Source: Candidatus Peribacteria bacterium RIFCSPLOWO2_12_FULL_55_15
GTDB taxonomy: Bacteria; Patescibacteriota; Gracilibacteria; Peribacterales; Peribacteraceae
DNA length: 64,000 nucleotides
NCBI GenBank assembly: GCA_001789045.1
Contig: MFYG01000021.1
Span: forward strand, 13,341 to 77,340
Reading direction: 5' to 3'
Positions 2,379 through 47,131 of this stretch are shown piece by piece. The position numbers were made by a program, and so were the translations under genes. The notes beneath the pieces were generated by a model that did no database searches, had not been told where the DNA came from, and worked only from the letters and a program-made list of their open reading frames with translations. Each line of letters starts with the position of its first letter. Positions within the stretch are counted from its first letter, which is position 1.

Positions 2379-4691
2379 TCATAGACTCATGCCGATGGCT
2401 CTGAGGTTTTGTTCTTTCACTTGGTTATCTCTCTCTCCGATCCGATCTCTGATATCCCCAGTTGTGATAATGTTTAAATCGATGAGATAATGGAAGTTTT
2501 TGAGTTCTGTTCCAAGGAGTGCTTGGACCTTCGTGTGTGTGAGAATCTGGGCAATGATTGGTTCTGTCCATCGCTTGCGCATTTCTCCGATGAAGGTTGC
2601 GCGGGCTGTCTGTGGCAGACGGGTATACGATTCATGTAGCTGCCGGAGTAATCCGTTTACAACAGCTGCTGTAGGGAGTTTTCCATTCGTGTCGGGACGC
2701 AAGAGGTTGACAAAGTGGGCGGGAGGGACCAGGAAGAGCTCGCTGATGGTATTTCCGTAATCCGAATCGATTTTCGTGAGATCTACTGTTGCTGAATATT
2801 TCTCTTCGTATGCCTCTTCTATAGATTCACGGTATTTCACAAATTCCTCTATTGTGGGGTCGTAGATAGTGATCGCCCCGCCGGTTTGCGTGTGGACAGT
2901 ATTTGTCCCGAAGAGCTTGGCAATGGCGTAATCTAGGCGGTCTTCTGCCGAGGGACCGACGACATCTTTCCCATCTTTGTTTTTGTCCTGTTCATCAATG
3001 CGGAGGCCACCCCCCGCTCGTATGAGTTGCTCTGCTTTCCGAAAAGCTTTTTCGATGACGTGCTCTGCACCCATGGTGCCTTCCCTGGCACGTCTTATGT
3101 ATTCGGTACTCATGAATTTGAGAGTGGAGAGGAGGTGGCTCTGTGGGGCTGAACACTGTGGATCGAATATAAGACCACCGAATGATTTCAACACTGGTTC
3201 GGTGAGGTATGGGTGCTGTCCTGGCTGGAGTGCTCTAATGAGTTTTACTGCTGCCCATGTGGGAGTGTGGCCTAAATCTCCTTTGATGATGGCGCGTTTT
3301 ACAATGCCTCGTACGAAGTGGTATTCGTATTTTTCTAAGTGTGTCTGGATGTGGGGAATCATGTCCCATGCCTGTCCCTTTGCGCTTGCAAATGCAAAGC
3401 CTTCCTCTTCCTGTTTCTTCCCCGCCTGTTCGTTGCGCACTTCTATGGTGCGCCAGAATTCTTCATTCTGCATAGGAGTCCAATGGACGGGGAGTTTGAT
3501 GTTTTCGCCAATGTTTTTTCCGAAGCACGTTGCTGTTCCATGACTGCCTGTTTTCAGATTGTAGAGGGCACCTCGGCTCGACATGACATTGAGCCAGGCA
3601 CGGATTCGTGCTGGGCTAAAGCTCGAGCCTCTTTCTTGGAAGAGAGTAATGAGTTCTTTCGTTCCTGTTCGTTCAAATTCTCCATTCTCTGTCTTCATTT
3701 CTTTTTCTTCATTTTCCTCGAGATTTTGACGGAGCGTTCGTTGGAATTCATCATCGGGGATGAATCGTGCTGCTCCGTATGCCATGGATGCAGCACGGCG
3801 TTCTTTCTGTGTTTCCCATTTCCTTTTGTATGCTTCCCAGATTTTCTTCAGGGCAGCGGGAATAGCGAGGATTGTCATCGTGTTCTCCCACCCTTCTTTC
3901 AGGAAGCCTATTGGAGAGAAAATTTGTTTCATTTCATCCCAGTACGCCTTATTTTCTTCTTCGAATCCTTTGCGCATTTCTTGCACAGCTTTAAGGACGG
4001 GGTCGAGATATTCTGCGTATTTTTTCAGTTCTTCCTGAATCTGGGCCAACTTTATCTTTGCATTGACAGTCAGGCTGAGCTTTTTGATGATTTTCTCCTT
4101 TTCCTTCCCAAATTCTTCATCGTCTGGGTCTGTGTTGCGCCATTTGGTATCGATGTCGGGATATTGCTCTTTGATGCTTTGGAGTTCCTGTTCTAGATTC
4201 TGATGCATGGTGTCCATGGCGTGATCATCTTCGTGAAGAATGCGCATCCAGTGAGCGAAATCTCCTGGGGGGAGGTCTCCATTTTGGAATCGCTCGATGG
4301 TGTCAGCCTCGTTTTCCAAATGGGAGACGACATCGCGCTCGTGATAACAGTATGCGGCGATGTCTCTCACCTGATCCGCGATATCCACGCGGTCTTTATT
4401 TTGCTTATCCTTGGATTTTTTCCGTTCGCTCTTCTGGATTCCATCGAGCGCTTTCACAAAGCCACGATGGTCGATGAGGCGGAGGGCCTCATCCATCATT
4501 TCCCGGAGAGCTCTTGCTTTCGCGTAGAGGGATTCCTTCTGCTCTGGTTTCTGGAGCGTGCGTTCGGCATCTGTTCGCGTTACTTCCGTCACGATACCGG
4601 GTTGTGGTCCCACTTCTGTGGGGGGGTCCTCGGGATTGAGCTCGCCACTTCCTATATCTTCTGATGGTGGTGTTGGTCCTGTCTTCGTCAT
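2379..4691 (-). CDS. Large hypothetical protein (770 aa), charged and coiled-coil-rich N-terminal half, no motif recognised
   Basis: This is a long intact ORF with the same compositional character as its neighbours. Its start lies 1 nt downstream of the upstream gene's stop, which suggests an operon with 4693..5166 and dut. Confidence 0.6.
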   Translation of the reverse strand: MTKTGPTPPSEDIGSGELNPEDPPTEVGPQPGIVTEVTRTDAERTLQKPEQKESLYAKARALREMMDEALRLIDHRGFVKALDGIQKSERKKSKDKQNKDRVDIADQVRDIAAYCYHERDVVSHLENEADTIERFQNGDLPPGDFAHWMRILHEDDHAMDTMHQNLEQELQSIKEQYPDIDTKWRNTDPDDEEFGKEKEKIIKKLSLTVNAKIKLAQIQEELKKYAEYLDPVLKAVQEMRKGFEEENKAYWDEMKQIFSPIGFLKEGWENTMTILAIPAALKKIWEAYKRKWETQKERRAASMAYGAARFIPDDEFQRTLRQNLEENEEKEMKTENGEFERTGTKELITLFQERGSSFSPARIRAWLNVMSSRGALYNLKTGSHGTATCFGKNIGENIKLPVHWTPMQNEEFWRTIEVRNEQAGKKQEEEGFAFASAKGQAWDMIPHIQTHLEKYEYHFVRGIVKRAIIKGDLGHTPTWAAVKLIRALQPGQHPYLTEPVLKSFGGLIFDPQCSAPQSHLLSTLKFMSTEYIRRAREGTMGAEHVIEKAFRKAEQLIRAGGGLRIDEQDKNKDGKDVVGPSAEDRLDYAIAKLFGTNTVHTQTGGAITIYDPTIEEFVKYRESIEEAYEEKYSATVDLTKIDSDYGNTISELFLVPPAHFVNLLRPDTNGKLPTAAVVNGLLRQLHESYTRLPQTARATFIGEMRKRWTEPIIAQILTHTKVQALLGTELKNFHYLIDLNIITTGDIRDRIGERDNQVKEQNLRAIGMSL

Positions 4692-4692
4692 A

Positions 4693-5166
4693 TTAGAGTT
4701 TACATATTCTTATAATACTGTCAATGAACCACTCCCCGCGGTCGGAGAGTTCCGGAATGAATCTCGCAATCTGCAGTCGGATAGCAGTTGCATCGGTGTC
4801 CCCCGTTTGGATTTTCACCGTTTTCTGTTGCTTCCCTTCAAAAAACTCGATGTGGAGTTCGGTGTAGAAGGGGGTAGGAACCAGCCAAAATCCCGTACAG
4901 TTATCCCAGCGGATGATGGTGCCCTCGAAGAGGAAGCCTTGGAGAAAGATTTCGATTCGCTTTTCTGGTGGAATGTGGTCGTGTAGGAGGGGATAGAGGA
5001 GACCGCAGAGGAGCATGAGGAGGGAGAATATCCAGTTCTCTGTGTAGGCGCCGTAGCTTGCGAAACTTAGGATAATGATGAAGAACACGACGTACCAACG
5101 CATTGTCCGGTTGTGTTTCGGGTGAGATGGGGCGCTCCAACTGAGGATGGGTGTGAGTTTTTCCAT
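4693..5166 (-). CDS. Small membrane protein (two N-terminal TM helices plus a soluble C-terminal domain)
   Basis: Hydrophobic stretches WYVVFFIIILSFASYGAY and WIFSLLMLLCGLLYPLL are present. It is tightly coupled to the 770-aa ORF. Confidence 0.55.
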   Translation of the reverse strand: MEKLTPILSWSAPSHPKHNRTMRWYVVFFIIILSFASYGAYTENWIFSLLMLLCGLLYPLLHDHIPPEKRIEIFLQGFLFEGTIIRWDNCTGFWLVPTPFYTELHIEFFEGKQQKTVKIQTGDTDATAIRLQIARFIPELSDRGEWFIDSIIRICKL

Positions 5167-8825: not shown

Positions 8826-10664
8826 ATGTCTAAACGTGTGCAAGCGCCGCATGGTAAGAAGTCCCACGATGCTCCATCGGATCTCGAAAAGATGCGCCAT
8901 TCCCTGGCGCATGTTCTTGCACAGGCGGTTCTGAAACTTTGGCCGGATACGAAGATCACAATCGGTCCGCCGATTGATTACGGATGCTACTACGATTTCC
9001 TCTTTCTAGAGCCTATTTCTGACGCCGACTTTCCGAAGATTGAAAAAGAGATGAGGAAGAGTATCCACCAGGGACAGACCTTCCGGTGTGACGCGCTTCC
9101 GACGAAGGACGCGAAGGCGTATTGGAAAAAACGCAAGCAGCCGTTCAAGGTGGAGCTCATTGAAGACTTAGAGAAGAACGAGGGTGTGAAGACGGTTACC
9201 CATTATGCGAATCTTGGTCCAAATGGCGAAGAGACCTTTGTCGATCTTTGTCTGGGGGGCCACGTTGCGAACCTGAGGGAGATTCCTGCGGATGGCTTTA
9301 TTATTCTCAGCATTGCTGGCGCTTATTGGCGAGGAGATGAGAAGAGGGGGCAGCTGACGCGGATCTACGTTGCGGCATTTTCCACGAAAGAGGAACTCGG
9401 TGCACATCTCCATATGTTGGAGGAAGCAAAAAAGCGTGATCACCGAAAATTGGGGAGGGAGATGGATCTCTTTGTGTTCAGCGATATGGTGGGGCCTGGT
9501 TTACCGCTTTGGACTCCGAAGGGGACTATCATTGCTGACGAGCTTGAGTGTCTTGCGCGGGAGACGGAGGCGGCTGCAGGGTATCTTCGTGTCCGCACGC
9601 CTCATATTGCGAAGGGGAAGCTCTACGAGCGGACAGGTCATCTCAAGCATTACCGGCAATCCATGTTCCCTCCCATGCAACTCGATGGGGAGGAAGCCTA
9701 TTACCTGAAGCCGATGAATTGCCCGCATCATCACGAGATTTTCGCGAGTAGTACGCGGAGCTACCGAGATCTTCCGATGCGTCTCTCGGAGTACGGGCAC
9801 TGCTATCGTTATGAAGACTCCGGGGCACTATTCGGCCTTATGCGCGTGCGATCGCTCTCGATGAATGATGCGCACATTTACTGCACCGAGGACCAGTTTG
9901 CATCGGAGTTTGTTGCTGTCATAAATATGTACCTGAAGTACTTTACGCTCTTTGGTATCGGGAAATATGTCATGCATCTCTCGCTCCATGATCCTTTGGA
10001 GCTCGGTAAGAAGTACGTGGATAATAGGAAGCTCTGGAAACATACGGAGGACATGGTGCGATGCGTCATGAAGCAGACTGGTTGCAATGTCATCGAGGTG
10101 CCGAATGAGGCGGCGTTCTACGGTCCGAAGATTGATGTAGAGGTATGGAGCGCCATTGGTCGTGAGTTCACTCTTGCGACAAACCAGGTGGATTTCGATG
10201 TTCCGACTCGCATGGGTTTGCGGTACGTTGATCGCGATGGTGTTTCGAAGGCGCCGCTCTGTATCCATCGTGCTCCCCTTGGTACACATGAACGCTTCAT
10301 CGGTTTCCTCATCGAGCACTTTGCGGGGCATTTTCCTCTGTGGCTCGCGCCCGTCCAAATCGGCTTGCTTCCGGTGGCGGAAAGTCATGAAAAGTATGCT
10401 CGTCCACTCGAAGGAGAGCTCCGCTCGAACGGCATACGCACGCAGTTTTTCGATCACACTGAGACGCTCGGGAAGCGCATTCGCGAAGGGGAGACAGCGA
10501 AGATTCCGTACCTCCTCGTGATTGGTGATAAGGAAGTTGGTGCGGATACGGTGACTGTGCGGAATGTCGCGACGAAACAGCAGGTGGTTGTGTCACGGAA
10601 GGAGTTTGTGGAAAAGACTGTGCACGATATTCGGGAGCGGAGACTCAAGTGCTCGATTGGGTGA
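8826..10664 (+). CDS. thrS: Threonine--tRNA ligase (no N-terminal TGS domain)
   Basis: HSLAH editing-domain motif near residue 25, class II motifs (KPMNCPHH, FGLMRVRSLSMNDAH) and an anticodon-binding tail are present. I chose the ATG at 8826; the track start at 8751 lies in the hairpin repeat. Confidence 0.9.
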   Translation: MSKRVQAPHGKKSHDAPSDLEKMRHSLAHVLAQAVLKLWPDTKITIGPPIDYGCYYDFLFLEPISDADFPKIEKEMRKSIHQGQTFRCDALPTKDAKAYWKKRKQPFKVELIEDLEKNEGVKTVTHYANLGPNGEETFVDLCLGGHVANLREIPADGFIILSIAGAYWRGDEKRGQLTRIYVAAFSTKEELGAHLHMLEEAKKRDHRKLGREMDLFVFSDMVGPGLPLWTPKGTIIADELECLARETEAAAGYLRVRTPHIAKGKLYERTGHLKHYRQSMFPPMQLDGEEAYYLKPMNCPHHHEIFASSTRSYRDLPMRLSEYGHCYRYEDSGALFGLMRVRSLSMNDAHIYCTEDQFASEFVAVINMYLKYFTLFGIGKYVMHLSLHDPLELGKKYVDNRKLWKHTEDMVRCVMKQTGCNVIEVPNEAAFYGPKIDVEVWSAIGREFTLATNQVDFDVPTRMGLRYVDRDGVSKAPLCIHRAPLGTHERFIGFLIEHFAGHFPLWLAPVQIGLLPVAESHEKYARPLEGELRSNGIRTQFFDHTETLGKRIREGETAKIPYLLVIGDKEVGADTVTVRNVATKQQVVVSRKEFVEKTVHDIRERRLKCSIG

Positions 10665-16257: not shown

Positions 16258-18528
16258 ATGTGTCATGAGCGCTCTGCTAGAATCCTTTCAACGTTTTTCC
16301 TTTCTCCTGTGCGACTTATTCATGTTGCAAAGGCATTGAGCATGACCGGGCAGGAGCTTCGCCACGAGCTTCTGCAAGTGGATTTCGGCGTGAAGCCGAC
16401 CGATCGTGAGGTGTCGGATACCCTTGCCCAGGGGATCATTCGCTACCTTGCGCGCAAGTACAACATCACTCCCCAGGGGATTTCCTCTTCGTATGTTCTC
16501 GAAGAGTCTGAAGAGGAATCACCGGAATCTTCTCCTCCAGTCCCCTCATCCCCCCAACCATCTCCTGCGGTGAGAGGGAGTTTTCCCGTTAGCGCACAGG
16601 AGGCTGTTCCCGTTCTCCGCAAACTCACGTTGGAAGATATTCCACGGCCGGCTCCTTCCAAGTGCCCGATTGGTCATGTTATAGGGGAGGATCATCGGGG
16701 CTCGCGATTGATTACGGAGCGGAGCGAGGAACGGAAGAAGCAAACTCTCAAGACGCAGGAGCAGATTAAGCACAAGGAAGGAATTGTTCTGTTGCCTGCC
16801 CGTATTTCGGTGAAGGAATTTGCAGAAAAGACAGGGGTGCAGGTTCCTCTTGTTATAGAGACACTCATGAAAAATGGCGTGATGGCGACGGTGAATCAGG
16901 CGATAGATTTCGATACCGCCGTCATTGTTGCAGCGGAGCTTGCGGTCACTGTGGAACGTGAGCAGGAACAGGCGCGGGCGGAAGACCTCCTCTCACGGAA
17001 TCTCAGAGAGCTTCTTAAGGATGATCCCGGCCCCCTCGTCCAGCGTCCGCCGATTGTCGTTATCATGGGGCACGTGGATCATGGGAAAACGTCGCTTTTG
17101 GATGCCATTCGAAAGACCAATGTGGCGAAGGGGGAAGCGGGAGGGATCACCCAGCATATCGGGGCGTATCAGGTTGAGCATGCCGGGAAGCGCATTACGT
17201 TCCTCGATACTCCTGGACATGAGGCGTTCACGGCCATGCGTTCACGCGGGGCTCAGATTACTGATGTCGCTGTCCTCGTCGTCGCGGCCGATGAGGGGGT
17301 GATGCCGACGACGATTGAGGCCATCCATCACGCTCGTGAGGCGGAGGTGCCGATACTCGTGGCTCTCACGAAGATGGATAAGCCTGCCGCGAATGTTTCG
17401 AAGGTGGAGGGGGAACTTGCGGCCCAGGACCTTCGGCCGGAGGACTGGGGAGGGGAAGTACCTGTGGTTCTTTGCTCTGCAGTGACAACCCAGGGACTTT
17501 CGGACCTCCTTGATCACATTCTCCTTCTTGCGGAAATGGAAAACCTCCAGGCGAATCCTGCGCGGAGAGCCATTGCAACGGTGATCGAAAGTCACCTGGA
17601 TATAGCCCACGGGCCACTGGGCACTGTGATCGTGAACACGGGAACGCTCCATATTGGCGATTCCTTTGTCTGTGGGAATACCTCGGGACGCGTGCGGGCG
17701 ATGATCGATGCAACGGGTGAGCGTATACAGGATGTTCCACCCTCCGGAGCTGTGCGTGTTTCAGGGTTCAGCGTGGTGCCTGATACCGGGGATATTGTCC
17801 AAGTCGTTGCGTCCGAGCGCGAGGCCCGTGCACTCTTGGAGAGTGTAGAGCGGGGCGTCGTCAACGCTGAGCGGCACGGACTGACCGATTTCGTGAGCAG
17901 ACTCACTGAGGGAAAACTTACCCAACTCAAGGTTATTGTGAAGGCGGATGCCCAAGGGTCGCTCGAGGCCATCCAGTCGTCTCTTTCGAAGCAATCCACG
18001 GGAGAAGTTATCGTGAAGGTGATTCATGGCGGGGTTGGGGCGGTGACGGAGAGCGATGTCATGCTTGCTGCCGCGAGCGGCACGCTCATTATTGCTTTCC
18101 ATGCGCCAGTGACGGCTTCTATTATCAAAACGGCAGAGGCACAGCATGTGCGGATTCGCGAGTATGAAGTGATCTATGCGCTTCTGGAAGATATTGCGGG
18201 CATCATGCAGGGATTACTGGTGCCAGAAGAGGAGGAGAAGGTCCTCGGGCACCTGGAGGTGAAGGGGGTGTTCTTCATGAAGAAGAACGAGCAAATCATT
18301 GGAGGGCGTGTGACGGATGGGGTGGCGAAGCGTGTGACGTTCCGGTTACACCGCGCGGATAAAGTTCTTGGCCAGGGGAAGATCACGTCGCTCCGAAAAG
18401 TCGAAAAAGATGTGAAAGAGGTTGGGGATGGGAGTGAGTGCGGTCTCAAGGTTGAATTTCCTATGCCTATAGAACTCGGCGATGTGCTCGAGATTTTCAG
18501 TAAGGAATTTCGGAAGCGGGTGGACTAG
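16258..18528 (+). CDS. infB: Translation initiation factor IF-2
   Basis: IF2_N motif (VRLIHVAKALSMTGQEL), G domain GHVDHGKTSLLD / DTPGHEAF / TKMD, and C-terminal domains. The start is uncertain: TTG 16255, ATG 16258 or GTG 16309. Confidence 0.92.
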   Translation: MCHERSARILSTFFLSPVRLIHVAKALSMTGQELRHELLQVDFGVKPTDREVSDTLAQGIIRYLARKYNITPQGISSSYVLEESEEESPESSPPVPSSPQPSPAVRGSFPVSAQEAVPVLRKLTLEDIPRPAPSKCPIGHVIGEDHRGSRLITERSEERKKQTLKTQEQIKHKEGIVLLPARISVKEFAEKTGVQVPLVIETLMKNGVMATVNQAIDFDTAVIVAAELAVTVEREQEQARAEDLLSRNLRELLKDDPGPLVQRPPIVVIMGHVDHGKTSLLDAIRKTNVAKGEAGGITQHIGAYQVEHAGKRITFLDTPGHEAFTAMRSRGAQITDVAVLVVAADEGVMPTTIEAIHHAREAEVPILVALTKMDKPAANVSKVEGELAAQDLRPEDWGGEVPVVLCSAVTTQGLSDLLDHILLLAEMENLQANPARRAIATVIESHLDIAHGPLGTVIVNTGTLHIGDSFVCGNTSGRVRAMIDATGERIQDVPPSGAVRVSGFSVVPDTGDIVQVVASEREARALLESVERGVVNAERHGLTDFVSRLTEGKLTQLKVIVKADAQGSLEAIQSSLSKQSTGEVIVKVIHGGVGAVTESDVMLAAASGTLIIAFHAPVTASIIKTAEAQHVRIREYEVIYALLEDIAGIMQGLLVPEEEEKVLGHLEVKGVFFMKKNEQIIGGRVTDGVAKRVTFRLHRADKVLGQGKITSLRKVEKDVKEVGDGSECGLKVEFPMPIELGDVLEIFSKEFRKRVD

Positions 18529-20561
18529 GGTGCTGGAGTTGTAGGTGGAGGAGGTGGTGGTGGTGGGGGGGTGGTGGGGGCGGGTGTGGTGAGGTTAATA
18601 ATGAGATTATTCTGCCAGTCGGAGGGCAGGTTCCCGGCAATGGAGGTGTCCGCATCGACGATTCTTTTCACAGAATCAACTATTTGCTCTGAAGTTGAGC
18701 GATCGAAATCCCCGACTTTTATTGCGAGGGTATCAAGAATTCTCTGGAGTTCCTTTCTTGCTTCCTTATACTCTGGTGTACTCTTGTTTACGAGCGTTAG
18801 TATGGTCTGTTGGAACTGTTTTCCGAGGTTGGTTTCCTTGAGTTCCTTTGCTGCGGCGGCGGCTTTATCTGTGGATATGGTCTTTGCGCCAAAGAGCGGT
18901 TTCCCCGCCCATGCGTTTGCCAATATTTGATCCGGACTCAGCTTCTGTCGTGTTCTCATTATCTGCGCGGGGATGGCTAACATTGATGCCACATTGATTT
19001 TATCCGCACCGAGCCATTTTTTCCCGCGCTCCGTCCTGCTGAGGGCTTGCAATGGTCTTTTTGCCATAGCGACGCCGAATCCTCCTGAGAGCGCAACAGT
19101 TCCAGCGCTGTAACCGTAGGCGCCGATTTTCCCCAATTTCTGGCCGGTTGCTTTGATGGCAGCGCTCCCCATACCGATATATTCATCCGATTGGAGAACG
19201 GCGAAGACCCCCATCCATAGGATGATGATTGAGAGGGCCATGAACAGAAAATTGGGGAGGGCTGAAAGGACTCCGTTGGTTGTGAGGGTAATGTTATTCA
19301 GCGCAGCGGCTGTTCCGGGAGCGTTCTGTATGCTTTGCAACGCGATGAATCCTACAGCGATAGGGATGCCGGCCATAACGGGCATGAAGGCTGCAGATAG
19401 GAACTTTTTCCATATTTTGTCTGTGAATGGTTTGATGGAGTCCGCGACAAACCCGAGCGCGACGAAGGGCATGAACCCCATGGTGATCCAGAGGATTGGC
19501 AGGCGGATGATGAAGGCGAGAGCGAGGGCTGCTAGGATGATCAAGTACGAGCCTGTACCAAGCATGATGAGAAACAGCCCCATGGCAAGTTCTATTGTTT
19601 CCGTGAACGATGATGCGGGGCTGGTGAAGATGCCGAGGTTCAATAATGGCTCAAATAATGTGGCAGCATCTGGGTTGAGCGTTGCTCCCTGTTGGAGGAT
19701 TTGCGCCAAAAATGTGGTCAATCCGCTGACAACGTAGTTTGCAGGATTTCCTGCTCCGATTGGATCAATTTTGACGCAGATCAGCGCAGTAGGGCAGATG
19801 GAGCCTGGGGGGGCAAGGGTTCTGAGGATAACACCTGTGATTGCTTTGCAATTGTTGCATGGCACATGAGCGCTAAGGGAAAAGATGGCGCGTGTGCCAA
19901 TAGATGCTGCGTCGACGATTACGCCGGGGATGAACCAGGAGAAGTTCACGAGGATGATGGCGGCGAGAAACTTCAGCGCGTAGCGATCGATGAATTCCTT
20001 GTTCGCTTTGATGATGGTCATGATGGCGCCGAAGAGGAAGACGGCGGCGAAACCGATGTTCACTGCGTTGCGGGAGACGGTCCAGATGTTTCGGTGGATG
20101 ACAGATTGTATATCTGGACTGTAAAAGAGAAAGTACGCGATGGTCCCATTTGCGGAGGAAACGGTCGATTCGACGATTTTGATCATTATGAATATGAGCG
20201 GGACGGCGATGCTGACGAAAATTGTGTAGATGGTCCATACAATGATGCGGCCTAGTGTTGCGATGAAGATTACGAGGAGTAATCCGAAGAAGGCCTTCTG
20301 TGCTAACCACAAAGCTGTATCCCTTATGAATTTCAAGATCCCTTGTGCGACTATGGCCCAAAGCGGGGCTTGTGCGAGGAGGCCAAGAGCATGTGCCTTT
20401 TCAATGATTGCGGTGGAGAGCAGGTCTACTGTGCCGTGCGTCACGGCGATTGAGATAAGGAAGATAATGGCTATTCCTCCGCAGACGCATTTTCCAATGG
20501 AGGAGCGATATTTGTGTTTACGCATTCTTTCCAGAATAGCATATATGTCTATTTCTTGCAA
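18525..20561 (-). CDS. Large polytopic membrane protein (at least 10 TM segments) with a soluble C-terminal region ending in a polyproline tail; possibly TrbL/VirB6-like
   Basis: Many hydrophobic helices throughout. The C-terminus is ...TTPAPTTPPPPPPPPPTTPAP. It follows the pilin-like gene after 18 nt. The start is TTG 20561 or ATG 20525. The VirB6 assignment rests on architecture and context only. Confidence 0.6.
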   Translation of the reverse strand: MQEIDIYAILERMRKHKYRSSIGKCVCGGIAIIFLISIAVTHGTVDLLSTAIIEKAHALGLLAQAPLWAIVAQGILKFIRDTALWLAQKAFFGLLLVIFIATLGRIIVWTIYTIFVSIAVPLIFIMIKIVESTVSSANGTIAYFLFYSPDIQSVIHRNIWTVSRNAVNIGFAAVFLFGAIMTIIKANKEFIDRYALKFLAAIILVNFSWFIPGVIVDAASIGTRAIFSLSAHVPCNNCKAITGVILRTLAPPGSICPTALICVKIDPIGAGNPANYVVSGLTTFLAQILQQGATLNPDAATLFEPLLNLGIFTSPASSFTETIELAMGLFLIMLGTGSYLIILAALALAFIIRLPILWITMGFMPFVALGFVADSIKPFTDKIWKKFLSAAFMPVMAGIPIAVGFIALQSIQNAPGTAAALNNITLTTNGVLSALPNFLFMALSIIILWMGVFAVLQSDEYIGMGSAAIKATGQKLGKIGAYGYSAGTVALSGGFGVAMAKRPLQALSRTERGKKWLGADKINVASMLAIPAQIMRTRQKLSPDQILANAWAGKPLFGAKTISTDKAAAAAKELKETNLGKQFQQTILTLVNKSTPEYKEARKELQRILDTLAIKVGDFDRSTSEQIVDSVKRIVDADTSIAGNLPSDWQNNLIINLTTPAPTTPPPPPPPPPTTPAP

Positions 20562-20579: not shown

Positions 20580-21563
20580 CTAGACGACACCGAATGCCGA
20601 TGGGTCGATTGTGGAGAGAATCGTTCCTGCGAAAATGAGCATAAGGAGTCCGACGATTGCCCACAGTATGTGGTCTTTGGCAGTTGTACGGAGACCCGGA
20701 TTCCCGCCAGAATTCATGATTTCGATGCCGCCGATGACAATTCGGAGGAGGGCGAGTCCCACTCCGATGCCGATGAGCCATTTCCAGACAGCAGAAACGT
20801 AGGACATAGCGCCAAGCGTCTGCTGGGAACTGAAAGGTTGCAGGAATGTGAGAGAAGAATTGTCTGGAAATGGAAGTAGTGACCATGTTGGGACGACGTT
20901 TGATCCACATACTCTGTCGGGGCCGCAGTTGCCACTGCAGCAATCCTCTTTGAGATAACATCTCTGATTATCCATGATGCAGCATTTGGATGTCTGTGGG
21001 GAACACCTGAGGCGAAGGGGTTGCTGACAGCAGCGCTCTTCTGGATGTTCACTGCAATCTTTGCCAACTATACGACAGGCAGTATCCACTGGTGGTGGGG
21101 TAGGTAAATTACATTTACCATTTATGCAGACATTGGACCCCTGTTGACCTTGAAAACAGCAATCCGCGTTTTTATTACAGTCTTGGTCGGGTTTTTTACA
21201 GCACTTCTTATCGTAACATATCAATCCAAAAGAATAGCAACATTCTTGTGGAAACTGACATGGTTCTCCGACTGATTTACAGTGGGCACATCTTGCTTCG
21301 CCGAGGAATGTACTATTGCAGTTTCCAAAGCAACATTCATCGCTATCCGTACATTTTATACCTATGTCTTTACAGCATACATTTCCCGGTCCGCAGATCA
21401 GATCTTTGTTAGGACAGCAATCGCTTTGATCATTGCATACATCAGAGATGTTGCTGCATTCTTCTACATCTACATCTACATTTACATTGTCTGCATAGAG
21501 AGCGAGAGGGGTCAGAAGAAAAGTACCAACGAGTACGACCCGCCATGTCCGGCGCATGCGCAT
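20580..21563 (-). CDS. Secreted cysteine-rich protein: signal peptide, six cystine-knot-like modules, and a C-terminal TrbC/VirB2-like two-helix pilin domain
   Basis: Signal peptide MRMRRTWRVVLVGTFLLTPLALYA. 36 Cys in a regular C-x6-C-x5-CC pattern. The C-terminus WKWLIGIGVGLALLRIVIGGIEIM-NSGGNPGLRTTAKD-HILWAIVGLLMLIFAGTIL forms a TM hairpin. The ORF could extend to a TTG at 21596. Confidence 0.7.
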   Translation of the reverse strand: MRMRRTWRVVLVGTFLLTPLALYADNVNVDVDVEECSNISDVCNDQSDCCPNKDLICGPGNVCCKDIGIKCTDSDECCFGNCNSTFLGEARCAHCKSVGEPCQFPQECCYSFGLICYDKKCCKKPDQDCNKNADCCFQGQQGSNVCINGKCNLPTPPPVDTACRIVGKDCSEHPEERCCQQPLRLRCSPQTSKCCIMDNQRCYLKEDCCSGNCGPDRVCGSNVVPTWSLLPFPDNSSLTFLQPFSSQQTLGAMSYVSAVWKWLIGIGVGLALLRIVIGGIEIMNSGGNPGLRTTAKDHILWAIVGLLMLIFAGTILSTIDPSAFGVV

Positions 21564-21602
21564 ATGTAGGTGTATTGTAGAGTGTGATTTTTCCAATTAC
21601 AA

Positions 21603-21878
21603 TCACCGATATTTTTGGTGTGTCATTCTGTCCATGAGTACGACTGCAAGAACTCCTGCCGTGAAGGCTGGGAGCATGCTTATCAGTGGAAAGAGTTCGA
21701 TCGTTCCTGCGATGACGGTGGGAAATGCCGGAACCCTTTTTATTTTCCAGTAGAGATACAATATAGGCGACACCACCAGTGACACGAGTACATTGATGAT
21801 TGGTAACAATGAGAAAAGATCTGCAGTGAGTGCAAACAGAACGAGCAGAGCAATTTCAGTGGAGGAGATTTTAAACAC
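21603..21878 (-). CDS. Small integral membrane protein (91 aa, about 3 TM), first gene of the cassette
   Basis: Hydrophobic ORF with a GTG start, located 6-39 nt upstream of the pilin-like gene on the same strand. Confidence 0.45.
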   Translation of the reverse strand: MFKISSTEIALLVLFALTADLFSLLPIINVLVSLVVSPILYLYWKIKRVPAFPTVIAGTIELFPLISMLPAFTAGVLAVVLMDRMTHQKYR

Positions 21879-22144: not shown

Positions 22145-22738
22145 ATGTCTTCGGCGAGCATTCTGAAGGCGCTCTTCAGTTCGCAGACCCGGGTGAAGCT
22201 TCTCTCGACGTTCTTGCTTCACCCCGAGCGCGAATACTTCATCCGTGAGCTGACGCGCCTCCTCAGTGAGCAGATCAACTCGATCCGGCGTGAACTGGAG
22301 AATCTCCGGAGGGTCGGTCTCGTCCGCGCCAGGCACCGTAATCGCAAGAAGTATTACCGTGTCGAGCAGGATTTTCTCTTGTACGGCGATCTTCGTTCCC
22401 TCTTTTCCAAAGTGGTGCAAGGGGAGAGTCCGCTCGTCCATGGACTTCGTAATCTTCCCTATGTGCAGTTGGTGCTCCTCGCCGGGAATTTCTGTGGGAC
22501 GGAGAGCAAAGTGGATCTTCTCCTTGTCGGGAATCTTCGGAAAGAGCTGGTGGAATCTCTTCTCTCTCAGGATGCACAGTACCGCCATGTGAAGTATTCC
22601 ATCTTCTCTGAGGCGGATTTCCTCTATCGCCTGAGCCTCAAAGATCGCTTTGTGACGGAGATCCTGTGCGATCCCAGGCATTTGATTGTCGTCAATAAGA
22701 TGCAGCCACAGATTGAGGAGGCGAGGGGGAAGAAGTGA
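22145..22738 (+). CDS. Winged-helix (ArsR-like) transcriptional regulator with a C-terminal uncharacterised domain
   Basis: The N-terminus RVKLLSTFLLHPEREYFIRELTRLLSEQINSIRRELENLRRVGLV resembles a wHTH. It is divergent from the membrane cassette. Confidence 0.6.
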   Translation: MSSASILKALFSSQTRVKLLSTFLLHPEREYFIRELTRLLSEQINSIRRELENLRRVGLVRARHRNRKKYYRVEQDFLLYGDLRSLFSKVVQGESPLVHGLRNLPYVQLVLLAGNFCGTESKVDLLLVGNLRKELVESLLSQDAQYRHVKYSIFSEADFLYRLSLKDRFVTEILCDPRHLIVVNKMQPQIEEARGKK

Positions 22739-24140: not shown

Positions 24141-25976
24141 ATGGAGATCAGGAACTTCTGCATCATTGCGCATATTGATCACGGGAAGTCGACGTTGGCG
24201 GATCGCTTTCTCGAAGTGACCGGCACGCTCAAGAAACGCGAGATGAGGGAGCAAACGCTCGATATGATGGATCTGGAACGTGAGCGAGGCATTACGATTA
24301 AGCTCACGCCAGTGCGTATGTCCTATCAGGGGATTCAACTGAATTTGATCGACACGCCGGGGCACACGGATTTCCGTTATGAGGTGAGCCGATCGCTCGT
24401 TGCCTGTGAAGGCGTGATCCTGCTTGTCGATGCGTCGCAGGGTATCCAGGCGCAGACGCTCGCCGTCCTCACGATGGCGATGGAGCATGATCTGACGATC
24501 ATTCCCGTGCTGAATAAAATCGATCTGCCCTCTGCGGATACAGAGCGCGTTAGCGAGGAAGTTCGGCGCATGCTCGGTTGCAAGAAGGAAGACATCCTCC
24601 TCATTTCCGCGAAGGATGGTAGGGGAGTGGAGGAGCTGCTGCGAGCGGTGATTGAGAGAATCCCAAGTACACAGCCTCTCACCCTACCTTCTTCCAATGA
24701 GAGAGGGGCAAGCTCACGGGCGCTGATTTTCGACGCTGTCATGGATACTTACCGCGGCGTCGTCGCCTACGTCCGCATCTTCGACGGCAGCTTCAGGAAG
24801 GGGCAGGAGGTTTTCTTGCTTGGCGCCAAGGGGCGTTTCGAAGTGCAGGACGTCGGGCACTTCTCGCCGAAGTACATCGCAGATGACGAACTTCCAGCTG
24901 GATCGATCGGGTACGTTGTGACCGGAGCGAAGGATGTTGGGCTCGTGCGGGTTGGCGACACGATTGCCGATCAAGCGACCGCGCATCCGCTCCCGGGCTA
25001 CAAGCATGTGCAGCCGATGGTGTTCGCCGGTTTGTATCCCTCAGAAGCGGATGGTTACCACGATCTTCGCGATGCGCTTGAGAAACTAGCGCTCAATGAC
25101 GCAGCGCTCCAGATCGAACACGAGCGGAATGCCGCGCTTGGGAACGGTTTTCGCTGTGGGTTCCTTGGTCTCCTCCACATGGACATCATCCAGGAGCGTC
25201 TCGAGCGCGAGTACGACTGCGACCTTGTGATCACGGCGCCGAGCGTGCTTTATGAGGTGAAGCTGAGTGTCCGCCAACCTGCGAGCGTCGTGCGCAGCAG
25301 TCTTCTGAAGTCCGATGAGCCCGATGTTGCGCAGATCAGCAATCCCGCCGATTTCCCAGACGCTTCGTGCATCGCTGAAGTCCGCGAGCCCTGGGTCGCG
25401 CTCGAGATCGTGTGCCGTTCAGAGGATGTTGGTGCCGTTATGACGCTCACACAGGAGCGGCGCGGTACGTACTTTGGTCTCGAGTACCTCGATGCGGGCC
25501 GAGCACTGTTAAAATTCGAGGTGCCGCTCCAGGCCATCATCCTCGACTACTTCGATAAGCTCAAATCAGCGACGTCCGGCTATGGGTCGATGAGCTACGA
25601 GCCGATGGAATACCGTGCTGGCGATCTCGTGAAGTTAGCGATTCTCCTCCTTGGCGACCCGGCCGAGGCTCTGAGTACGATTGTGCATAGGAGCGAGGCG
25701 CACGCGGTCGGCGCGATAGTTTGCAAGCGCCTCAAGGAGGCTCTCCCAAAAGCGCAATTCGAAATCCCTATCCAAGCTGCGGTTGGCGCCAAAGTCGTCG
25801 CGCGCGAAACACTCGGCGCAATGCGCAAGGATGTCACGGGCTATCTCTACGGTGGTGACGTCAGCCGCAAACAGAAGCTTCTCAAGAAGCAGAAAAAGGG
25901 CAAGAAGCGGATGAAGCAGATGGGGAAGGTGACGCTCACGCAGGAGGCATTCCTCAGTGTGTTGCAACGTGATTAA
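24141..25976 (+). CDS. lepA: Elongation factor 4 (LepA)
   Basis: IRNFCIIAHIDHGKSTLADR, DTPGHTDF, NKIDL and the LepA C-terminal domain (GKKRMKQMGKV) are present. Confidence 0.95.
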   Translation: MEIRNFCIIAHIDHGKSTLADRFLEVTGTLKKREMREQTLDMMDLERERGITIKLTPVRMSYQGIQLNLIDTPGHTDFRYEVSRSLVACEGVILLVDASQGIQAQTLAVLTMAMEHDLTIIPVLNKIDLPSADTERVSEEVRRMLGCKKEDILLISAKDGRGVEELLRAVIERIPSTQPLTLPSSNERGASSRALIFDAVMDTYRGVVAYVRIFDGSFRKGQEVFLLGAKGRFEVQDVGHFSPKYIADDELPAGSIGYVVTGAKDVGLVRVGDTIADQATAHPLPGYKHVQPMVFAGLYPSEADGYHDLRDALEKLALNDAALQIEHERNAALGNGFRCGFLGLLHMDIIQERLEREYDCDLVITAPSVLYEVKLSVRQPASVVRSSLLKSDEPDVAQISNPADFPDASCIAEVREPWVALEIVCRSEDVGAVMTLTQERRGTYFGLEYLDAGRALLKFEVPLQAIILDYFDKLKSATSGYGSMSYEPMEYRAGDLVKLAILLLGDPAEALSTIVHRSEAHAVGAIVCKRLKEALPKAQFEIPIQAAVGAKVVARETLGAMRKDVTGYLYGGDVSRKQKLLKKQKKGKKRMKQMGKVTLTQEAFLSVLQRD

Positions 25977-38367: not shown

Positions 38368-40491
38368 ATGGTAGTATCACCCCCTTTTCCACCTTCTTCT
38401 ATGCCTGAAGTGTCCGATACTCTCCCAGTAGCCACCATTCCTCCAGTCACGGAGGTACCGGCTCCCGCTATCCGTCTTGAGCTTGGTGAACGTCTTCAAT
38501 CTCTCCTTTCTCCTAAGGAACTCCAGAGTGAGGATCTCGATACGGTGCAGGAGTTCATCGAGCGAGGGGGGAGACTCATGGCGATCGACTATACGAAGCT
38601 TCCTCCGGAGGAGAAGCAAGAGGGGTTCCGGAAGGCGCGGGAGTACCTGAATCAGCCGATGCATTCGGTCGTTGCCGGGGTTTCGGTAGAGAATCCCGAT
38701 CGTGTGTACCACCATCCGAATCCGAACGATCCAGCAGAGACATTTGCGCCGATTAATCCTCTCCCGCGTGAATGCGTGGAAGAAGTGATGGACATTGCGA
38801 TGGATGAGGAGCGATGCCCGACGTGGGACGGACAGGAGAACTTTACGGAGCGCCAAAAGGTCATCGACCAGTTCATCGCAAGTGTATACCAAGATCGTGC
38901 GACGCTCGCCGGTCTCATGGCGCTCTGTCAGGGGAAGACGGGTTTCGAGGTCTATCGTGACATGCAGGAGCTCTTCGATTTCTGGCGGGAGTATCGAGAG
39001 GTGCAGGAGGTGATGCGTTACAATGAATCACTCTTACGTAGCAATGGCGATACCACGCTCGAATATCGACCGCTCGATGGGGTGGTTGGTATTTGGCAAC
39101 CCTTCAATTTTAGTTGCATTGGGGCAGGGGACACGATGGGTGCGCTCCTCATGGGGAACTCCGTCGTCATCCATACATCGGCCCGCAATGTTGGTACGTA
39201 CAAGTGGCTGTACGACAAACTCCTGGAGGCCGGCGTGCCGCCGGAACGGGTGCAGTTCGTGATTCCGCACGACGATCCTGATCCGGCGAAAATTGACAAA
39301 TCCATGTCCGAGGCGCTTGCAGCGCACCCCTATATGCAGCTCATCCAGTTCACGGGGTCGCATAAAGTTGCGAAAGATCTCCATAAAATCCAGGCTCAGA
39401 AGGTGCAGGATCCGGAGGGGATTGGCCGTCTCGATTACAAACTCCAGGCGGAGGCGGGCGGGTACAATCCCTTTGTCATCACGGGGTTGCCGGACGGGGC
39501 GATGAAACCTCTCCATGCGTTCCTCGTCGCAGGAGGGCATGAGGATGATGAGCCGACAGCGGAAGCGTGGGATGAGTTCTTCGCTCGTCTCGAGCAGGAA
39601 GGTGGGACATTGCAGAATCTTCTCAATGCTGCTGTTGATTCTGTGACAGGACTGCAAGCGCACAAGTGTTCATCGTGCAAAGAATTCATTGTTGCCGTTG
39701 ATGAGCGGGAATTCGATGGTCTGAGTCTCTGGAATGCGGCAATGTTAAAACTCCTCATTACAGAGCGCCTGAAGCGTGTGAAAATCGGTCCAGCCGAAGG
39801 TGGGGAAGCGGAGATGGGATCGCTGATTGATCAGAAGATGCATAACTCCGTACGCACGAGCCTCATGCAGATTGTGCAGGAGGGAGGTGTTCCTCTTACG
39901 GCCGCAACGATAGAGGAGGCAATGGATGCTTTTGTGGGTCTACCGCATGCAATGGTGCCGGTACTCTACGAAGTCCCGCAGGGGAATCTTGATACGATGG
40001 ACAAGGTGGAGGTCTTTGCGCCAGTCGTGCGGTGGAATGAAGTGAAGGGGATCAATGCTGCTCTCTGCCGTGCGAACGATCTGGAGTATGCCCTCACCGC
40101 CACGGTGGTTGCTCCCACGGAGAGTGAGGCAAAGTGGCTGCGTTCGCAGATGCCGCAGGGGGTGGTCTACGTGAGTAGTGATGATGGCAAGATCGATGGG
40201 TGCACAGGAGCACCCGCGCCGCAGATCCCTTTTGGCGGGAGCGCGAAATCGGGAACGGGCTCTGCGTATCGTCCGGGGAATAGTCGCACTCCTCTGGCGT
40301 TTGCACAGGAAGTCTCCTTTCCTCGTGTCAGTCGTGGAAATTGGGGAAAAGGATTACATCCTTCGCCGACTGGCGATGTCCTCGATGGCGTTTTCCGGCG
40401 GGATCCGGAGGGAGTTGCTGTGTGGGTGCGGGAGAATGTGAAGGTGATGGTGGGCGGGGGTGGACTTGAACCACCGACCGCAGGTTTATAA
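38368..40491 (+). CDS. Divergent aldehyde dehydrogenase superfamily protein (P5C-dehydrogenase-like) with a long N-terminal extension and internal insertion
   Basis: IWQPFNFSCIGAGD...GNSVVIHTS, IQFTGSHKVAKD, EAGGYNPFVI, HKCSS (catalytic Cys context) and PFGGSAKSGTGS are present. The last 44 nt overlap tRNA-Ile on the opposite strand. Confidence 0.65.
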   Translation: MVVSPPFPPSSMPEVSDTLPVATIPPVTEVPAPAIRLELGERLQSLLSPKELQSEDLDTVQEFIERGGRLMAIDYTKLPPEEKQEGFRKAREYLNQPMHSVVAGVSVENPDRVYHHPNPNDPAETFAPINPLPRECVEEVMDIAMDEERCPTWDGQENFTERQKVIDQFIASVYQDRATLAGLMALCQGKTGFEVYRDMQELFDFWREYREVQEVMRYNESLLRSNGDTTLEYRPLDGVVGIWQPFNFSCIGAGDTMGALLMGNSVVIHTSARNVGTYKWLYDKLLEAGVPPERVQFVIPHDDPDPAKIDKSMSEALAAHPYMQLIQFTGSHKVAKDLHKIQAQKVQDPEGIGRLDYKLQAEAGGYNPFVITGLPDGAMKPLHAFLVAGGHEDDEPTAEAWDEFFARLEQEGGTLQNLLNAAVDSVTGLQAHKCSSCKEFIVAVDEREFDGLSLWNAAMLKLLITERLKRVKIGPAEGGEAEMGSLIDQKMHNSVRTSLMQIVQEGGVPLTAATIEEAMDAFVGLPHAMVPVLYEVPQGNLDTMDKVEVFAPVVRWNEVKGINAALCRANDLEYALTATVVAPTESEAKWLRSQMPQGVVYVSSDDGKIDGCTGAPAPQIPFGGSAKSGTGSAYRPGNSRTPLAFAQEVSFPRVSRGNWGKGLHPSPTGDVLDGVFRRDPEGVAVWVRENVKVMVGGGGLEPPTAGL

Positions 40492-40524
40492 GTCCTGTGC
40501 TCTAACCAACTGAGCTACCCGCCC
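40448..40524 (-). tRNA. tRNA-Ile (anticodon TAT), CCA encoded
   Basis: The reverse complement is GGGCGGG-TA-GCTC-AGTTGGTTA-GAGC-A-CAGGA-CTTATAA-ACCTG-CGGTC-GGTGG-TTCAAGT-CCACC-CCCGCCC-A-CCA. The body resembles minor tRNA-Ile. Note the A31:A39 mismatch. Confidence 0.72.
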
Positions 40525-46041: not shown

Positions 46042-46137
46042 AGCCACTTGCTTCGCCATCCCGGCTCTTGTTGGCTTCTGCGGCATGGGATGGTATCAGG
46101 TGTTTCCGTGCATTATGTTTAGTCTGTCCATTGATTC

Positions 46138-46165
46138 TATAAACATAAAATGCATTATGTTAAGT
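46138..46165 (+). other. dif-like 28-bp Xer recombination site candidate
   Basis: TATAAACATAA-AATGCA-TTATGTTAAGT. The right arm matches 10 of 11 positions of the E. coli XerD arm TTATGTTAAAT, and the arms are 8/11 palindromic. The site overlaps the xer ATG (46157). Confidence 0.55.
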
Positions 46166-47131
46166 ATGAAAGATGTGGAAAACCCTCCTCTCCCCCATTC
46201 ATCCGTTCTTGCACGAGCAATAGAGCGGTACCTCGTGTACCTCCGGTCAGAAGAAAATAAGTCTCCGCTCACGGTGGCGGCATACCATCGTTCTTTAGGT
46301 CTTTACATGAAAATTGGCGAAGTAAGTGATCCAAAGGACGTTTCGAAGGTGTCAGTACGCCTGTATAAGGCGAACCTTCATATCTATAGGACGCGCGATA
46401 AGCGAGAGCTCGCTGTACGGACGAAGAATCACCATCTCACCGTCCTTCGGGCATTTCTTCGGTATCTCATTCAGGAGGAGGAGATGGAGATTTACCCACC
46501 GGATCGGGTAACGCGTTTCAAGGAGGAGCAGCGACAGGTGAAGGTCCTCTTCATGGAGGAGCTGGAGCGGCTCCTCACGGCGCCGGATCCTTCGACGAAG
46601 GAGGGGAAGCGGGACAGGGCGATTCTCGAACTTTTCTTCTCGACAGGGCTGCGCCTCGCCGAACTTCGCAGTCTCAACGGCAAGGACATCAACTTTCAGA
46701 CGCGGGAGATTTCCGTGCGCGGGAAGCGGGGGAAGATTCGTGTGGTATTCCTCTCCGATCGTGCCGTTACTGCGCTTCGTGCTTACCTCGATATCCGGCT
46801 CGATCATTTGGTTCCGCTCTTCATTCGCAGTCATCAGCAGGCAGTCACTGCCCTGCCTCCGGGGGAGGAATTCCGTCTCTCACGGATATCAATCTATGTT
46901 CTCGTGAAGAAGTACGCTCGGCAGGCGGGGATTGTATCTTCCCCATCCCCGCACACCCTGCGGCATTCCTTTGCGACGAACTTGTTGCAGAATGGTGCGG
47001 ATTTACGGTCTATCCAGGAGCTTTTGGGTCATAAAGATCTTTCGACGACGCAGATCTATACTCATGTCACCAATCCGCAGCTCAAAGATGTGCATCGGAA
47101 GTTTCATGGAATAGACGTGAAAATTCATTGA
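46157..47131 (+). CDS. xerC: Tyrosine recombinase XerC/XerD family
   Basis: N-terminal SAM-like core-binding domain ([19 protein letters not shown]). The catalytic residues lie in [19 protein letters not shown] and [16 protein letters not shown]. Whether this is XerC, XerD or a single-Xer type cannot be told from the sequence. Confidence 0.85.

Follow-up and report, generated by a model that had tools for sequence, protein, structure and literature searches.

What is an array of 36 cysteines, spaced much as in the cystine-knot toxins of spiders and cone snails, doing in front of the membrane hairpin of a bacterial pilin? The question is raised by a single open reading frame (ORF) in a stretch of 64,000 nucleotides (hereafter the window) of contig MFYG01000021.1, from a bacterium of the candidate phyla radiation (CPR; Candidatus Peribacteria, Rifle aquifer), a setting that agrees with the small-genome organism supposed in the original prediction, which had been made from the letters of the DNA. 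The product is almost certainly a chimera in which a Sec signal peptide is followed by an array of six cysteine-rich modules, a linker and a pilin hairpin of the VirB2-like family PF18895. The best overall explanation, towards which the balance of probability tilts slightly, is a predicted surface-displayed stalk or adhesin, stiffened by disulfides and carried on a pilin anchor. The parts of the ORF, numbered in residues from its first codon, are the following.

20580 to 21596, minus strand: whole ORF, 338 codons from a TTG (ORF list and translation).
21492 to 21563, minus strand: Sec-type signal peptide MRMRRTWRVVLVGTFLLTPLALYA, residues 12-35 (hydropathy; basic n-region and small residues at -3/-1 in the sequence).
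21459 to 21491, minus strand: acidic (NV)n(DV)n tract, predicted mature N-terminus, residues 36-46 (population variants).
21375 to 21458, minus strand: module 1, residues 47-74, C-x6-C-x5-CC-x6-C-x5-C (cysteine spacing in the translation).
21288 to 21374, minus strand: module 2, residues 75-103, C-x6-C-x5-CC-x3-C-x9-C, the source of the best Pfam matches to cystine-knot families (spacing and Pfam).
21201 to 21281, minus strand: module 3, residues 106-132, C-x6-C-x5-CC-x6-C-x4-C, within the structural model (spacing).
21111 to 21200, minus strand: module 4, residues 133-162, C-x6-C-x5-CC-x9-C-x4-C, within the structural model (spacing).
21078 to 21110, minus strand: proline-rich linker NLPTPPPVDTA, residues 163-173, between units 4 and 5 (translation).
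20982 to 21077, minus strand: module 5, residues 174-205, C-x6-C-x7-CC-x7-C-x6-C, the sole unit off the x6/x5 core (spacing).
20907 to 20981, minus strand: module 6, residues 206-230, C-x6-C-x5-CC-x3-C-x5-C, with omega-conotoxin-like spacing (spacing and profile matches to omega-conotoxins).
20808 to 20906, minus strand: cysteine-free linker, residues 231-263, with FLQPF as the counterpart of the LLEPI that starts mature short pilins (alignment).
20583 to 20807, minus strand: VirB2-like pilin domain of type IV secretion systems (T4SS), residues 264-338, two hydrophobic helices around the loop NSGGNPGLRTTAKDH (PF18895 and hydropathy).

All 36 cysteines of the ORF lie within residues 47-230 (21458..20907, minus strand), where they account for 19.6% of the residues as against 1.0% across 19 neighbouring genes, and they fall into six units of about 28 amino acids with the form C-x6-C-x5(7)-CC-xn-C-xn-C. 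The six six-cysteine units originally described at 20907-21458 were thus recovered with the same coordinates and with every spacing listed for them, save that the core said to be invariant, C-x6-C-x5-CC, is kept in five of the six and reads C-x6-C-x7-CC in unit 5. Counted with overlaps, the C-x6-C-x5-CC motif occurs six times, and when the region was shuffled 200,000 times with its composition preserved, five was never reached, which excludes chance clustering of the cysteines. There is also a second level of order, in that CC junctions fuse units 1-2, 3-4 and 5-6 in pairs, each of the three resulting double modules having a length of exactly 57 amino acids (47-103, 106-162 and 174-230). Double module A moreover shows a 14-residue period, with C-x6-C-x5-C occurring three times. 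This pairing, together with the period, hints that the array originated by duplication of a two-module unit.

Do the modules fold as knottins? All six satisfy the framework C-C-CC-C-C, with loops of 6 / 5 or 7 / 0 / 3-9 / 4-9 residues. The best Pfam scores against inhibitor cystine knot (ICK) families, all of them sub-threshold, were 20.9 bits for Toxin_29 (cut-off 25), 20.1 for Toxin_18 (24.3), 18.3 for Toxin_21 (21) and 13.9 for Toxin_12 (21), with Conotoxin_I2 also among the sub-threshold matches. ICK toxin families were the only ones whose sub-threshold matches followed the whole cysteine framework, those to GULLO2-like and Dickkopf_N being partial, and at E values up to 10 Pfam returned no granulin, EGF, defensin, hevein or metallothionein match, and membership of these families was rejected on this ground. 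A profile of the six window modules, compared with 177,635 distinct sequences of the Protein Data Bank (PDB), gave 28 matches at E <= 10; 24 of these were solved ICK peptides (6px7, the best at E 1e-3, omega-GVIA, kappa-PVIIA, r11a, Hv1a, Hi1a, huwentoxin-IV and hainantoxin-IV), and the other four were partial matches on a snake PLA2 inhibitor. When the profile was widened to 12 modules by adding those of a second bacterial contig, L043 (for details, see below), it gave 35 matches, essentially all ICK, with a best E of 2e-4; such module profiles being short and dominated by cysteines, matches of this kind speak for likeness of pattern, not for proven homology. The claim of a knottin-type cysteine framework is therefore upheld by six fitting modules and by PDB profile matches that are almost exclusively ICK peptides, and the search against knottin families that had been suggested succeeded with solved peptides and reached no curated ICK cut-off.

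Structure prediction leads in the same direction. For modules 3-4, with alignment rows drawn only from the other window modules, AlphaFold2 (AF2) gave a predicted local distance difference test score (pLDDT) of 75.9 and a predicted template-modelling score (pTM) of 0.55, and placed a beta-hairpin from Cys V to Cys VI in each module. Searched against the PDB with Foldseek, this two-module model found three matches, all of them cystine knots, namely the double-knot toxin 6cuc and the cyclotides hyen D and circulin B, at a root-mean-square deviation (rmsd) of 2.4-2.6 A over 28 columns, a TM-score of 0.50-0.55 by target length and E values of 2-7. Metagenomic pithoviruses supplied the best matches in BFVD, which holds predicted viral structures: their cysteine-rich 'transmembrane proteins' reach a probability of up to 1.00 and a TM-score of 0.61-0.68 across 55-60 columns, at E 0.02-0.2, and the baculovirus conotoxin-like protein Ctl appears lower down. 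A dozen LCPAC-series pithovirus 'transmembrane proteins' superpose on the two-module model, and these predicted structures suggest that membrane-anchored tandem arrays of cystine-knot-like modules may also occur in giant viruses.

Other cysteine-rich folds were considered as well. Granulins carry the twelve-cysteine motif C-x5-6-C-x5-CC-x8-CC-x6-CC-x5-CC-x4-C-x5-6-C; the 57-residue double modules do not conform to it, having three CC pairs interleaved with single cysteines and not four consecutive CC pairs. The Myxococcus cysteine-rich repeat, a kind weakly matched by other Peribacteria cysteine-rich proteins, was found by neither Pfam nor NCBIfam in the window protein, nor by Pfam in the L043 protein. 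The fold tests thus agree on a knottin-like module, no other fold being indicated by any of them, though each is weak or partly driven by the cysteine pattern itself. We consider it probable, by a reasonable measure, that the modules are knottin-like in their predicted fold; they look like ICK peptides, and membership of an ICK family is not established.

The other half of the chimera is recognised more directly. The C-terminus matches the T4SS_pilin family PF18895 with 36.1 bits against a cut-off of 26.6 (residues 270-330, model positions 12-71 of 71); TrbC (PF04956) reaches only 14.2 bits on the same ORF, and the NCBIfam pilin-like conjugal-transfer model matches the C-terminal domain below threshold. 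Hydropathy marks hydrophobic segments at residues 20-38, 266-284 and 306-324 of the 338-residue ORF (9-27, 255-273 and 295-313 counted from Met12). By the positive-inside rule a basic loop is cytoplasmic, and the loop between the two C-terminal helices contains R/K. A cytoplasmic loop with both termini outside, which is the VirB2/TraA topology, would place the cysteine array outside the cell, and the array is therefore predicted to be extracytoplasmic. The earlier idea of a pilin or membrane anchor that displays the modules on the surface accordingly stands, by a family match above cut-off for the anchor and by predicted topology for the display. Judged from its residues, the signal peptide would be cleaved after LYA, leaving the acidic (NV)n(DV)n tract at the mature N-terminus. 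This tract differs in length by in-frame 6-bp steps among the population variants (DNVNVDVEE, DNVNVDVDVEE and DNVNVNVDVDVEE), with one dipeptide pair more or fewer, a pattern that looks like slipped-strand length variation.

How did the array come to stand in a pilin? A search with the pilin part alone found nine homologues that are 59-82% identical in the hairpin, all of them 107-120 amino acids long. When these nine were aligned together with the pilin of the related Peribacteria contig L001, a single gap of about 200 residues appeared exactly at the position of the array, and the hairpin proved nearly invariant across the relatives (the pilin domain is, for example, 81% identical to the short pilin L123_p1). 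With 338 amino acids as against 107-120 in its nine closest homologues, the window protein is not a small pilin devoid of an extra folded domain. Since its closest pilin relatives have no array, the array is a lineage-specific insertion, made between the signal peptide and the mature pilin of a pilin paralogue or a relocated orthologue. The short homologue is the first of a three-pilin array adjoining metG in the relatives, and the window gene lies at a different locus. In these related Peribacteria (L123, 2398-3715; L125, 696-2100; L001, 146-1415) the tandem trio of divergent PF18895 pilins stands upstream of metG. The second pilin of the metG-linked trio, at 197-202 amino acids, carries two pilin hairpins in one protein.

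The gene model itself deserves some attention, given that public annotations of it disagree. Translation probably starts from the ATG at 21563 (residue 12) and yields a protein of 327 amino acids with the N-terminus MRMRRTW, as called by IMG and ENA on identical DNA, and this is the start chosen by most gene callers in the 90%-identity cluster. That cluster holds ten variants of 325-340 amino acids and a 75-residue NCBI entry named 'hypothetical protein' of Candidatus Peribacteria bacterium. The 338-codon ORF is intact in all ten of the near-identical population variants, which come from many contigs and samples, and the sole indel is in-frame. DNA that is identical or 99.6-99.9% identical occurs on many contigs, including L126 (a 94-kb Rifle aquifer scaffold), L002 (a 3.65-kb ENA contig) and L128 (GenBank MFXX01000021.1, assembly GCA_001787615.1, gene at 8957-9946); three further contigs carry the gene with 100% identity, and a fourth (L002) differs by one 6-bp in-frame indel. 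The closest genome match is an uncultured Candidatus Peribacteria metagenome-assembled genome, and the array in its long ORF is limited to one species-level population. On MFXX01000021.1, whose DNA is identical to that of the window, GenBank annotates the last 75 codons only, together with a 95-residue antisense ORF over the cysteine region, and because of this call the array is missing from the NCBI protein set. Such an annotation blind spot means that comparable cysteine-rich extensions may go unseen elsewhere.

Are there relatives of the array outside this population? A search of a 5.8-billion-protein index found only the near-identical protein P0001, and an exhaustive phmmer search of the cysteine region against 1.84 billion representatives returned P0001 and a spurious cysteine-free repeat protein (P0002) only, a null to be read with the caveat that HMMER's composition correction may mask very distant cysteine-rich relatives. 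A six-row double-module profile gave zero candidates in a protein search, and tblastn of the array against plasmids gave no match. A DNA pattern for a three-module cysteine framework, scanned over JGI metagenome contigs, matched at least 120 loci, nearly all of those listed being TG-rich low-complexity DNA, and among the matches listed L043 was the sole real analogue. Another of the loci, L074, was set aside as it carries a different repeat, CC-x5-CC; on viral contigs the same pattern found nothing comparable, L129 having a different and longer cysteine repeat.

The L043 locus (contig Ga0163144_10117610, 70% GC) carries its array at 3515-4105 on the minus strand, with the N-terminus lost at the contig end. 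It encodes at least six modules of the form C-x6-C-x5-CC-x3-5-C-x3-9-C, separated by linkers of 2-5 residues, and resembles the window array in pairwise BLASTP (E 9e-5), in an acidic residue before the CC and in the same weak Toxin_29 match. There is no pilin domain; the protein stops right after its last module, and the neighbouring ORFs encode long exported proteins, not pilins. An exact look-up of the L043 protein in the protein collection did not find it, and Pfam assigned it to no family. Judged by its modules, L043 would be an independent bacterial example of the module type, from an unrelated bacterium. The original remark that such arrays are unusual in bacteria thus holds as far as the 1.84 billion representatives go, which contain no homologue of the array, and is tempered by the similar tandem modules of L043; the cysteine periodicity that was to be looked for in related genomes is lacking in the nine pilin relatives and turned up on this unrelated contig instead. 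In all of these searches, fusion of such modules to a pilin domain was not seen beyond the population of the window gene.

How might such a protein work? Once the protein is exported and its signal peptide removed, the hairpin would lie in the membrane, its basic loop facing the cytoplasm and both termini the exterior. The cysteines would be oxidised outside the membrane, all 36 being paired in 18 disulfides, of which each module would most likely contain three in a knottin-like pattern of the ICK type, and the six disulfide-locked modules, with their proline-rich hinge, would form a stiff, protease-resistant chain of mini-domains. In F and T pilins the N-termini face the filament exterior. 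If the hairpin polymerised like these pilins, the array would coat or tip a pilus; if it did not, the array would be a membrane-anchored surface stalk reaching through the wall layers. In either case the array would most likely serve to make contact with a partner cell or a surface, or to adhere to it, and would supply an adhesin function not found in surveys of Patescibacteria T4SS. Taken on its own, adhesion or service as a stalk is a role that we propose tentatively, as a plausible reading of the sequence that stops short of being a probable one.

Peribacteria are placed by GTDB in the class Gracilibacteria. In this class T4SS genes are reported as dispersed and VirB6 as undetectable, and in the survey concerned, covering 3,035 genomes of Patescibacteria, most genomes had VirB2-like pilins, in many cases close to dnaA, and no adhesins were detected (PMC12102498). 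With pilins present and adhesins missing in that survey, and with the window gene lying about 12 kb from dnaA beside an unclassifiable polytopic membrane protein, the most economical reading would be that the pilin has an adhesin or contact domain built in. Enzymes that could oxidise the cysteines are recorded in a relative, the genome of Ca. Peribacter riflensis encoding DsbB, two DsbA-like proteins and many cysteine-rich extracellular proteins (PMC4736985).

Several points weigh against this picture. On the side of the fold, no curated ICK family reaches its gathering score (the best being 20.9 versus 25 bits), the E values of 2-7 from the Foldseek search of the PDB are not significant, AF2 may map any C-C-CC-C-C framework onto a knottin, and its single-sequence model of residues 36-236, at a pLDDT of 50.6, is unusable for fold claims; the structure prediction that had been suggested thus gave, for modules 3-4, a model whose PDB matches are all cystine knots and statistically weak, and for the whole array an unusable model. 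On the side of disulfide formation, the Dsb genes are known from a related species and not from the window genome, and none was found in the window or just beyond its ends. CPR bacteria are, moreover, often anoxic and without quinones, which would limit DsbB-type oxidation. On the side of the pilus, neither VirB4 nor any other recognisable T4SS gene was found in the 64-kb window or in about 8 kb past either end, so that pilus assembly is unsupported, and VirB2-type helical packing may leave no space for a domain of about 190 amino acids on each of the subunits. It is rather unlikely that the modules are true cystine knots and that the chimeric pilin also polymerises into a VirB2-type filament sheathed or tipped with six-knottin chains. 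Were both true, prokaryotes would have their first tandem knottin array and T4SS pilins their first member that acts as its own adhesin, and host contact by Patescibacteria T4SS without a known adhesin would be accounted for.

Which other explanations have to be weighed? The same display role might be served by a non-knotted disulfide fold, such as a 12-cysteine unit with cross-junction disulfides, a granulin-like hairpin stack or a disulfide-directed hairpin. Such a fold would agree well with the pairing of modules by CC junctions into three 57-residue units, with the 14-residue C-x6-C-x5-C periodicity of unit A and with the weakness of every knottin match, yet Pfam has no granulin, EGF, defensin or hevein match to offer for it at E values up to 10, the PDB profile matches that span a whole module are all ICK peptides, and the AF2 model has one hairpin per six-cysteine unit. 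The L043 modules, split by linkers of 2-5 residues and free of CC junctions, further suggest that the six-cysteine unit is autonomous. A non-knotted fold is thus unlikely on this evidence, though it retains an appreciable share of the probability. It is also conceivable that the protein is a polyprotein precursor, cleaved into free knottins with a toxic, antimicrobial or protease-inhibiting action on a host or competitors, with the hairpin as an export or anchor device. Its nearest matches in sequence and structure are indeed secreted toxins and the plant knottin-type antimicrobial peptide Ep-AMP1, and the baculovirus conotoxin-like Ctl is among the BFVD matches; however, modules 1-2, 3-4 and 5-6 abut with zero residues between their cysteines, which leaves processing sites no space, repeated cleavage motifs (dibasic or otherwise) are absent, no maturation protease is encoded adjacent to the gene, and the array is covalently joined to a highly conserved membrane hairpin. 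Release of free peptides is accordingly improbable, and of the three roles originally proposed (adhesin, toxin or protease-resistant stalk) stalk and adhesin are favoured, the toxin being the least supported.

Might the cysteines instead bind metal? A metallothionein-like thiolate domain, sequestering or sensing metal at the cell surface, would suit the very high cysteine content and the divergent neighbour at 22145-22738, a winged-helix protein with a weak ArsR/SmtB-type match (25.9 versus 55 bits). The domain is predicted to be extracytoplasmic, however, and its regular spacing, loops of 3-9 residues and eight aromatic residues differ from metallothioneins, whose dominant C-x-C and C-x-x-C clusters it lacks; no metallothionein family is matched, and the score of the regulator is far under threshold, all of which makes metal binding very improbable. 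Scarcely credible, finally, is the reading that follows the GenBank annotation of MFXX01000021.1, namely that the long ORF is not real coding sequence and that the true gene is the 75-residue pilin, annotated there together with the 95-residue antisense ORF. A frame of 338 codons stays open in DNA of 47.5% GC, the six-fold cysteine framework was never reproduced by shuffling, the IMG and ENA callers give 325-340 amino acids, and the ten variants show no frame disruption; the shorter product would, in addition, lose the canonical signal peptide, although pilins need export.

The preferred reading, a disulfide-stiffened stalk or adhesin on a pilin anchor, can be set beside several known systems. 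Like the VirB2/TrbC-like pilins of Patescibacteria (PF18895), the protein has a signal peptide and a two-helix hairpin, with up to 82% identity to short Peribacteria pilins, and its location about 12 kb from dnaA is the position reported for Patescibacteria T4SS genes (PMC12102498). Unlike them (known members have about 105-120 amino acids, or about 200 in double pilins, and none of those examined has a folded N-terminal domain), it carries some 200 extra residues with 36 cysteines, and it lies outside any pilin array with no VirB4 nearby. With ICK peptides such as O-superfamily conotoxins and spider toxins the modules share the C-C-CC-C-C framework, loops of 6/5/0/3-9/4-9 and a predicted beta-hairpin between Cys V and Cys VI, whereas they differ in being bacterial, six in tandem, membrane-anchored and below every curated cut-off. 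Shared descent with these toxins can hardly be expected to be provable, and convergence on so simple a framework is just as possible. Of the tandem ICK toxins, DkTx (6cuc) is the top PDB match of the two-module model and Hi1a (6ba3) is among the profile matches, but DkTx matches only weakly, with E 2.2 and an rmsd of 14 A across the two modules, and both toxins are soluble proteins of two linker-joined modules, unlike the six modules here, which form three linkerless CC-joined pairs on a membrane anchor. The L043 array likewise has six-cysteine modules in tandem and differs from the window array, whose distinguishing marks are the pilin fusion, the CC junctions between modules and the lower GC content. 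The pithovirus 'transmembrane proteins' (e.g. A0A481ZBH1), which gave the best structural matches, are also membrane-anchored and cysteine-rich, yet they are viral and known as predicted structures in BFVD alone.

A further comparison is with the large cysteine-rich extracellular proteins of Peribacteria themselves, which come from the same class and are likewise exported. They have been proposed to act in attachment, with disulfide-forming enzymes recorded (Anantharaman et al. 2016, PMC4736985), and measure 580-3860 amino acids with 2-11% cysteine, none of them being a pilin (PMC4736985). The window array has no detectable sequence similarity to other proteins of the databases searched. Cysteine-rich surface proteins are an already known trait of Peribacteria, and the functional steps proposed here are all inferred. 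What would be the significance of such a protein? Knottins are regarded as mini-proteins essentially of eukaryotes and viruses, and a six-fold, membrane-anchored bacterial version, if real, would widen the range of this scaffold and make available a display scaffold that is concatenated by nature and probably very stable. A pilin that brings its own extracellular domain would also be a concrete, testable candidate for host contact in CPR bacteria. In a literature search of incomplete coverage, neither a folded N-terminal domain on a VirB2-family pilin nor a bacterial tandem knottin array was found to have been reported.

The gene is the only pilin in the window, and it is flanked by two genes for membrane proteins in the same orientation.

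21603 to 21878, minus strand: 91-residue protein with about three hydrophobic segments, upstream and co-oriented (hydropathy).
18525 to 20525, minus strand: 666-residue polytopic membrane protein with at least nine hydrophobic segments and a proline-rich C-terminus, downstream and co-oriented (hydropathy).

By inference only, the 666-residue protein may be a VirB6 analogue. Pfam and NCBIfam scans of these two neighbours, and of a 770-residue protein further away, returned no family match. The surroundings are chromosomal, with ftsA/ftsZ, dnaA, thrS, lgt, corA, eno, infB, rplS, lepA, a Mur ligase, an SLH protein, dnaK, recA and dnaB in the window, and origin from a conjugative plasmid is ruled out by the core genes dnaA, infB, rplS, eno and lepA in the flanks. 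Divergent from the trio of genes for the 91-residue protein, the pilin and the 666-residue protein lies the gene for the 197-residue winged-helix protein (22145-22738, plus strand), which, going by this arrangement, may regulate the trio.

Some further features of the window are worth recording. The 770-residue protein (2379-4691, minus strand) and the neighbouring ORF at 4693-5166 (minus strand; 157 amino acids in the window, 107 as called in the collection block L249) lie about 2.5 kb from dnaA, and the neighbouring ORF, too, has no Pfam or NCBIfam match; the 770-residue protein was found on at least 40 collection blocks and is therefore conserved in the population. The lepA gene, a single intact gene of 611 residues in the window (24141-25976) and on L128, appears as two gene calls (265 and 312 amino acids) on L126 (4560-6385), probably through a frameshift or assembly difference between variants. 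A tyrosine recombinase of the phage-integrase family, probably Xer-like, is encoded at 45842-47131 (plus strand), and a T2SSE/PilB-type ATPase at 51224-52354 (minus strand) points to a type IV pilus machinery distinct from the VirB2-like pilin. In bacteria AUA is usually decoded by a lysidine-modified CAU tRNA, and a tRNA-Ile with a UAU anticodon is uncommon; the window encodes one such tRNA-Ile (anticodon TAT in the DNA) at 40448-40524 on the minus strand.

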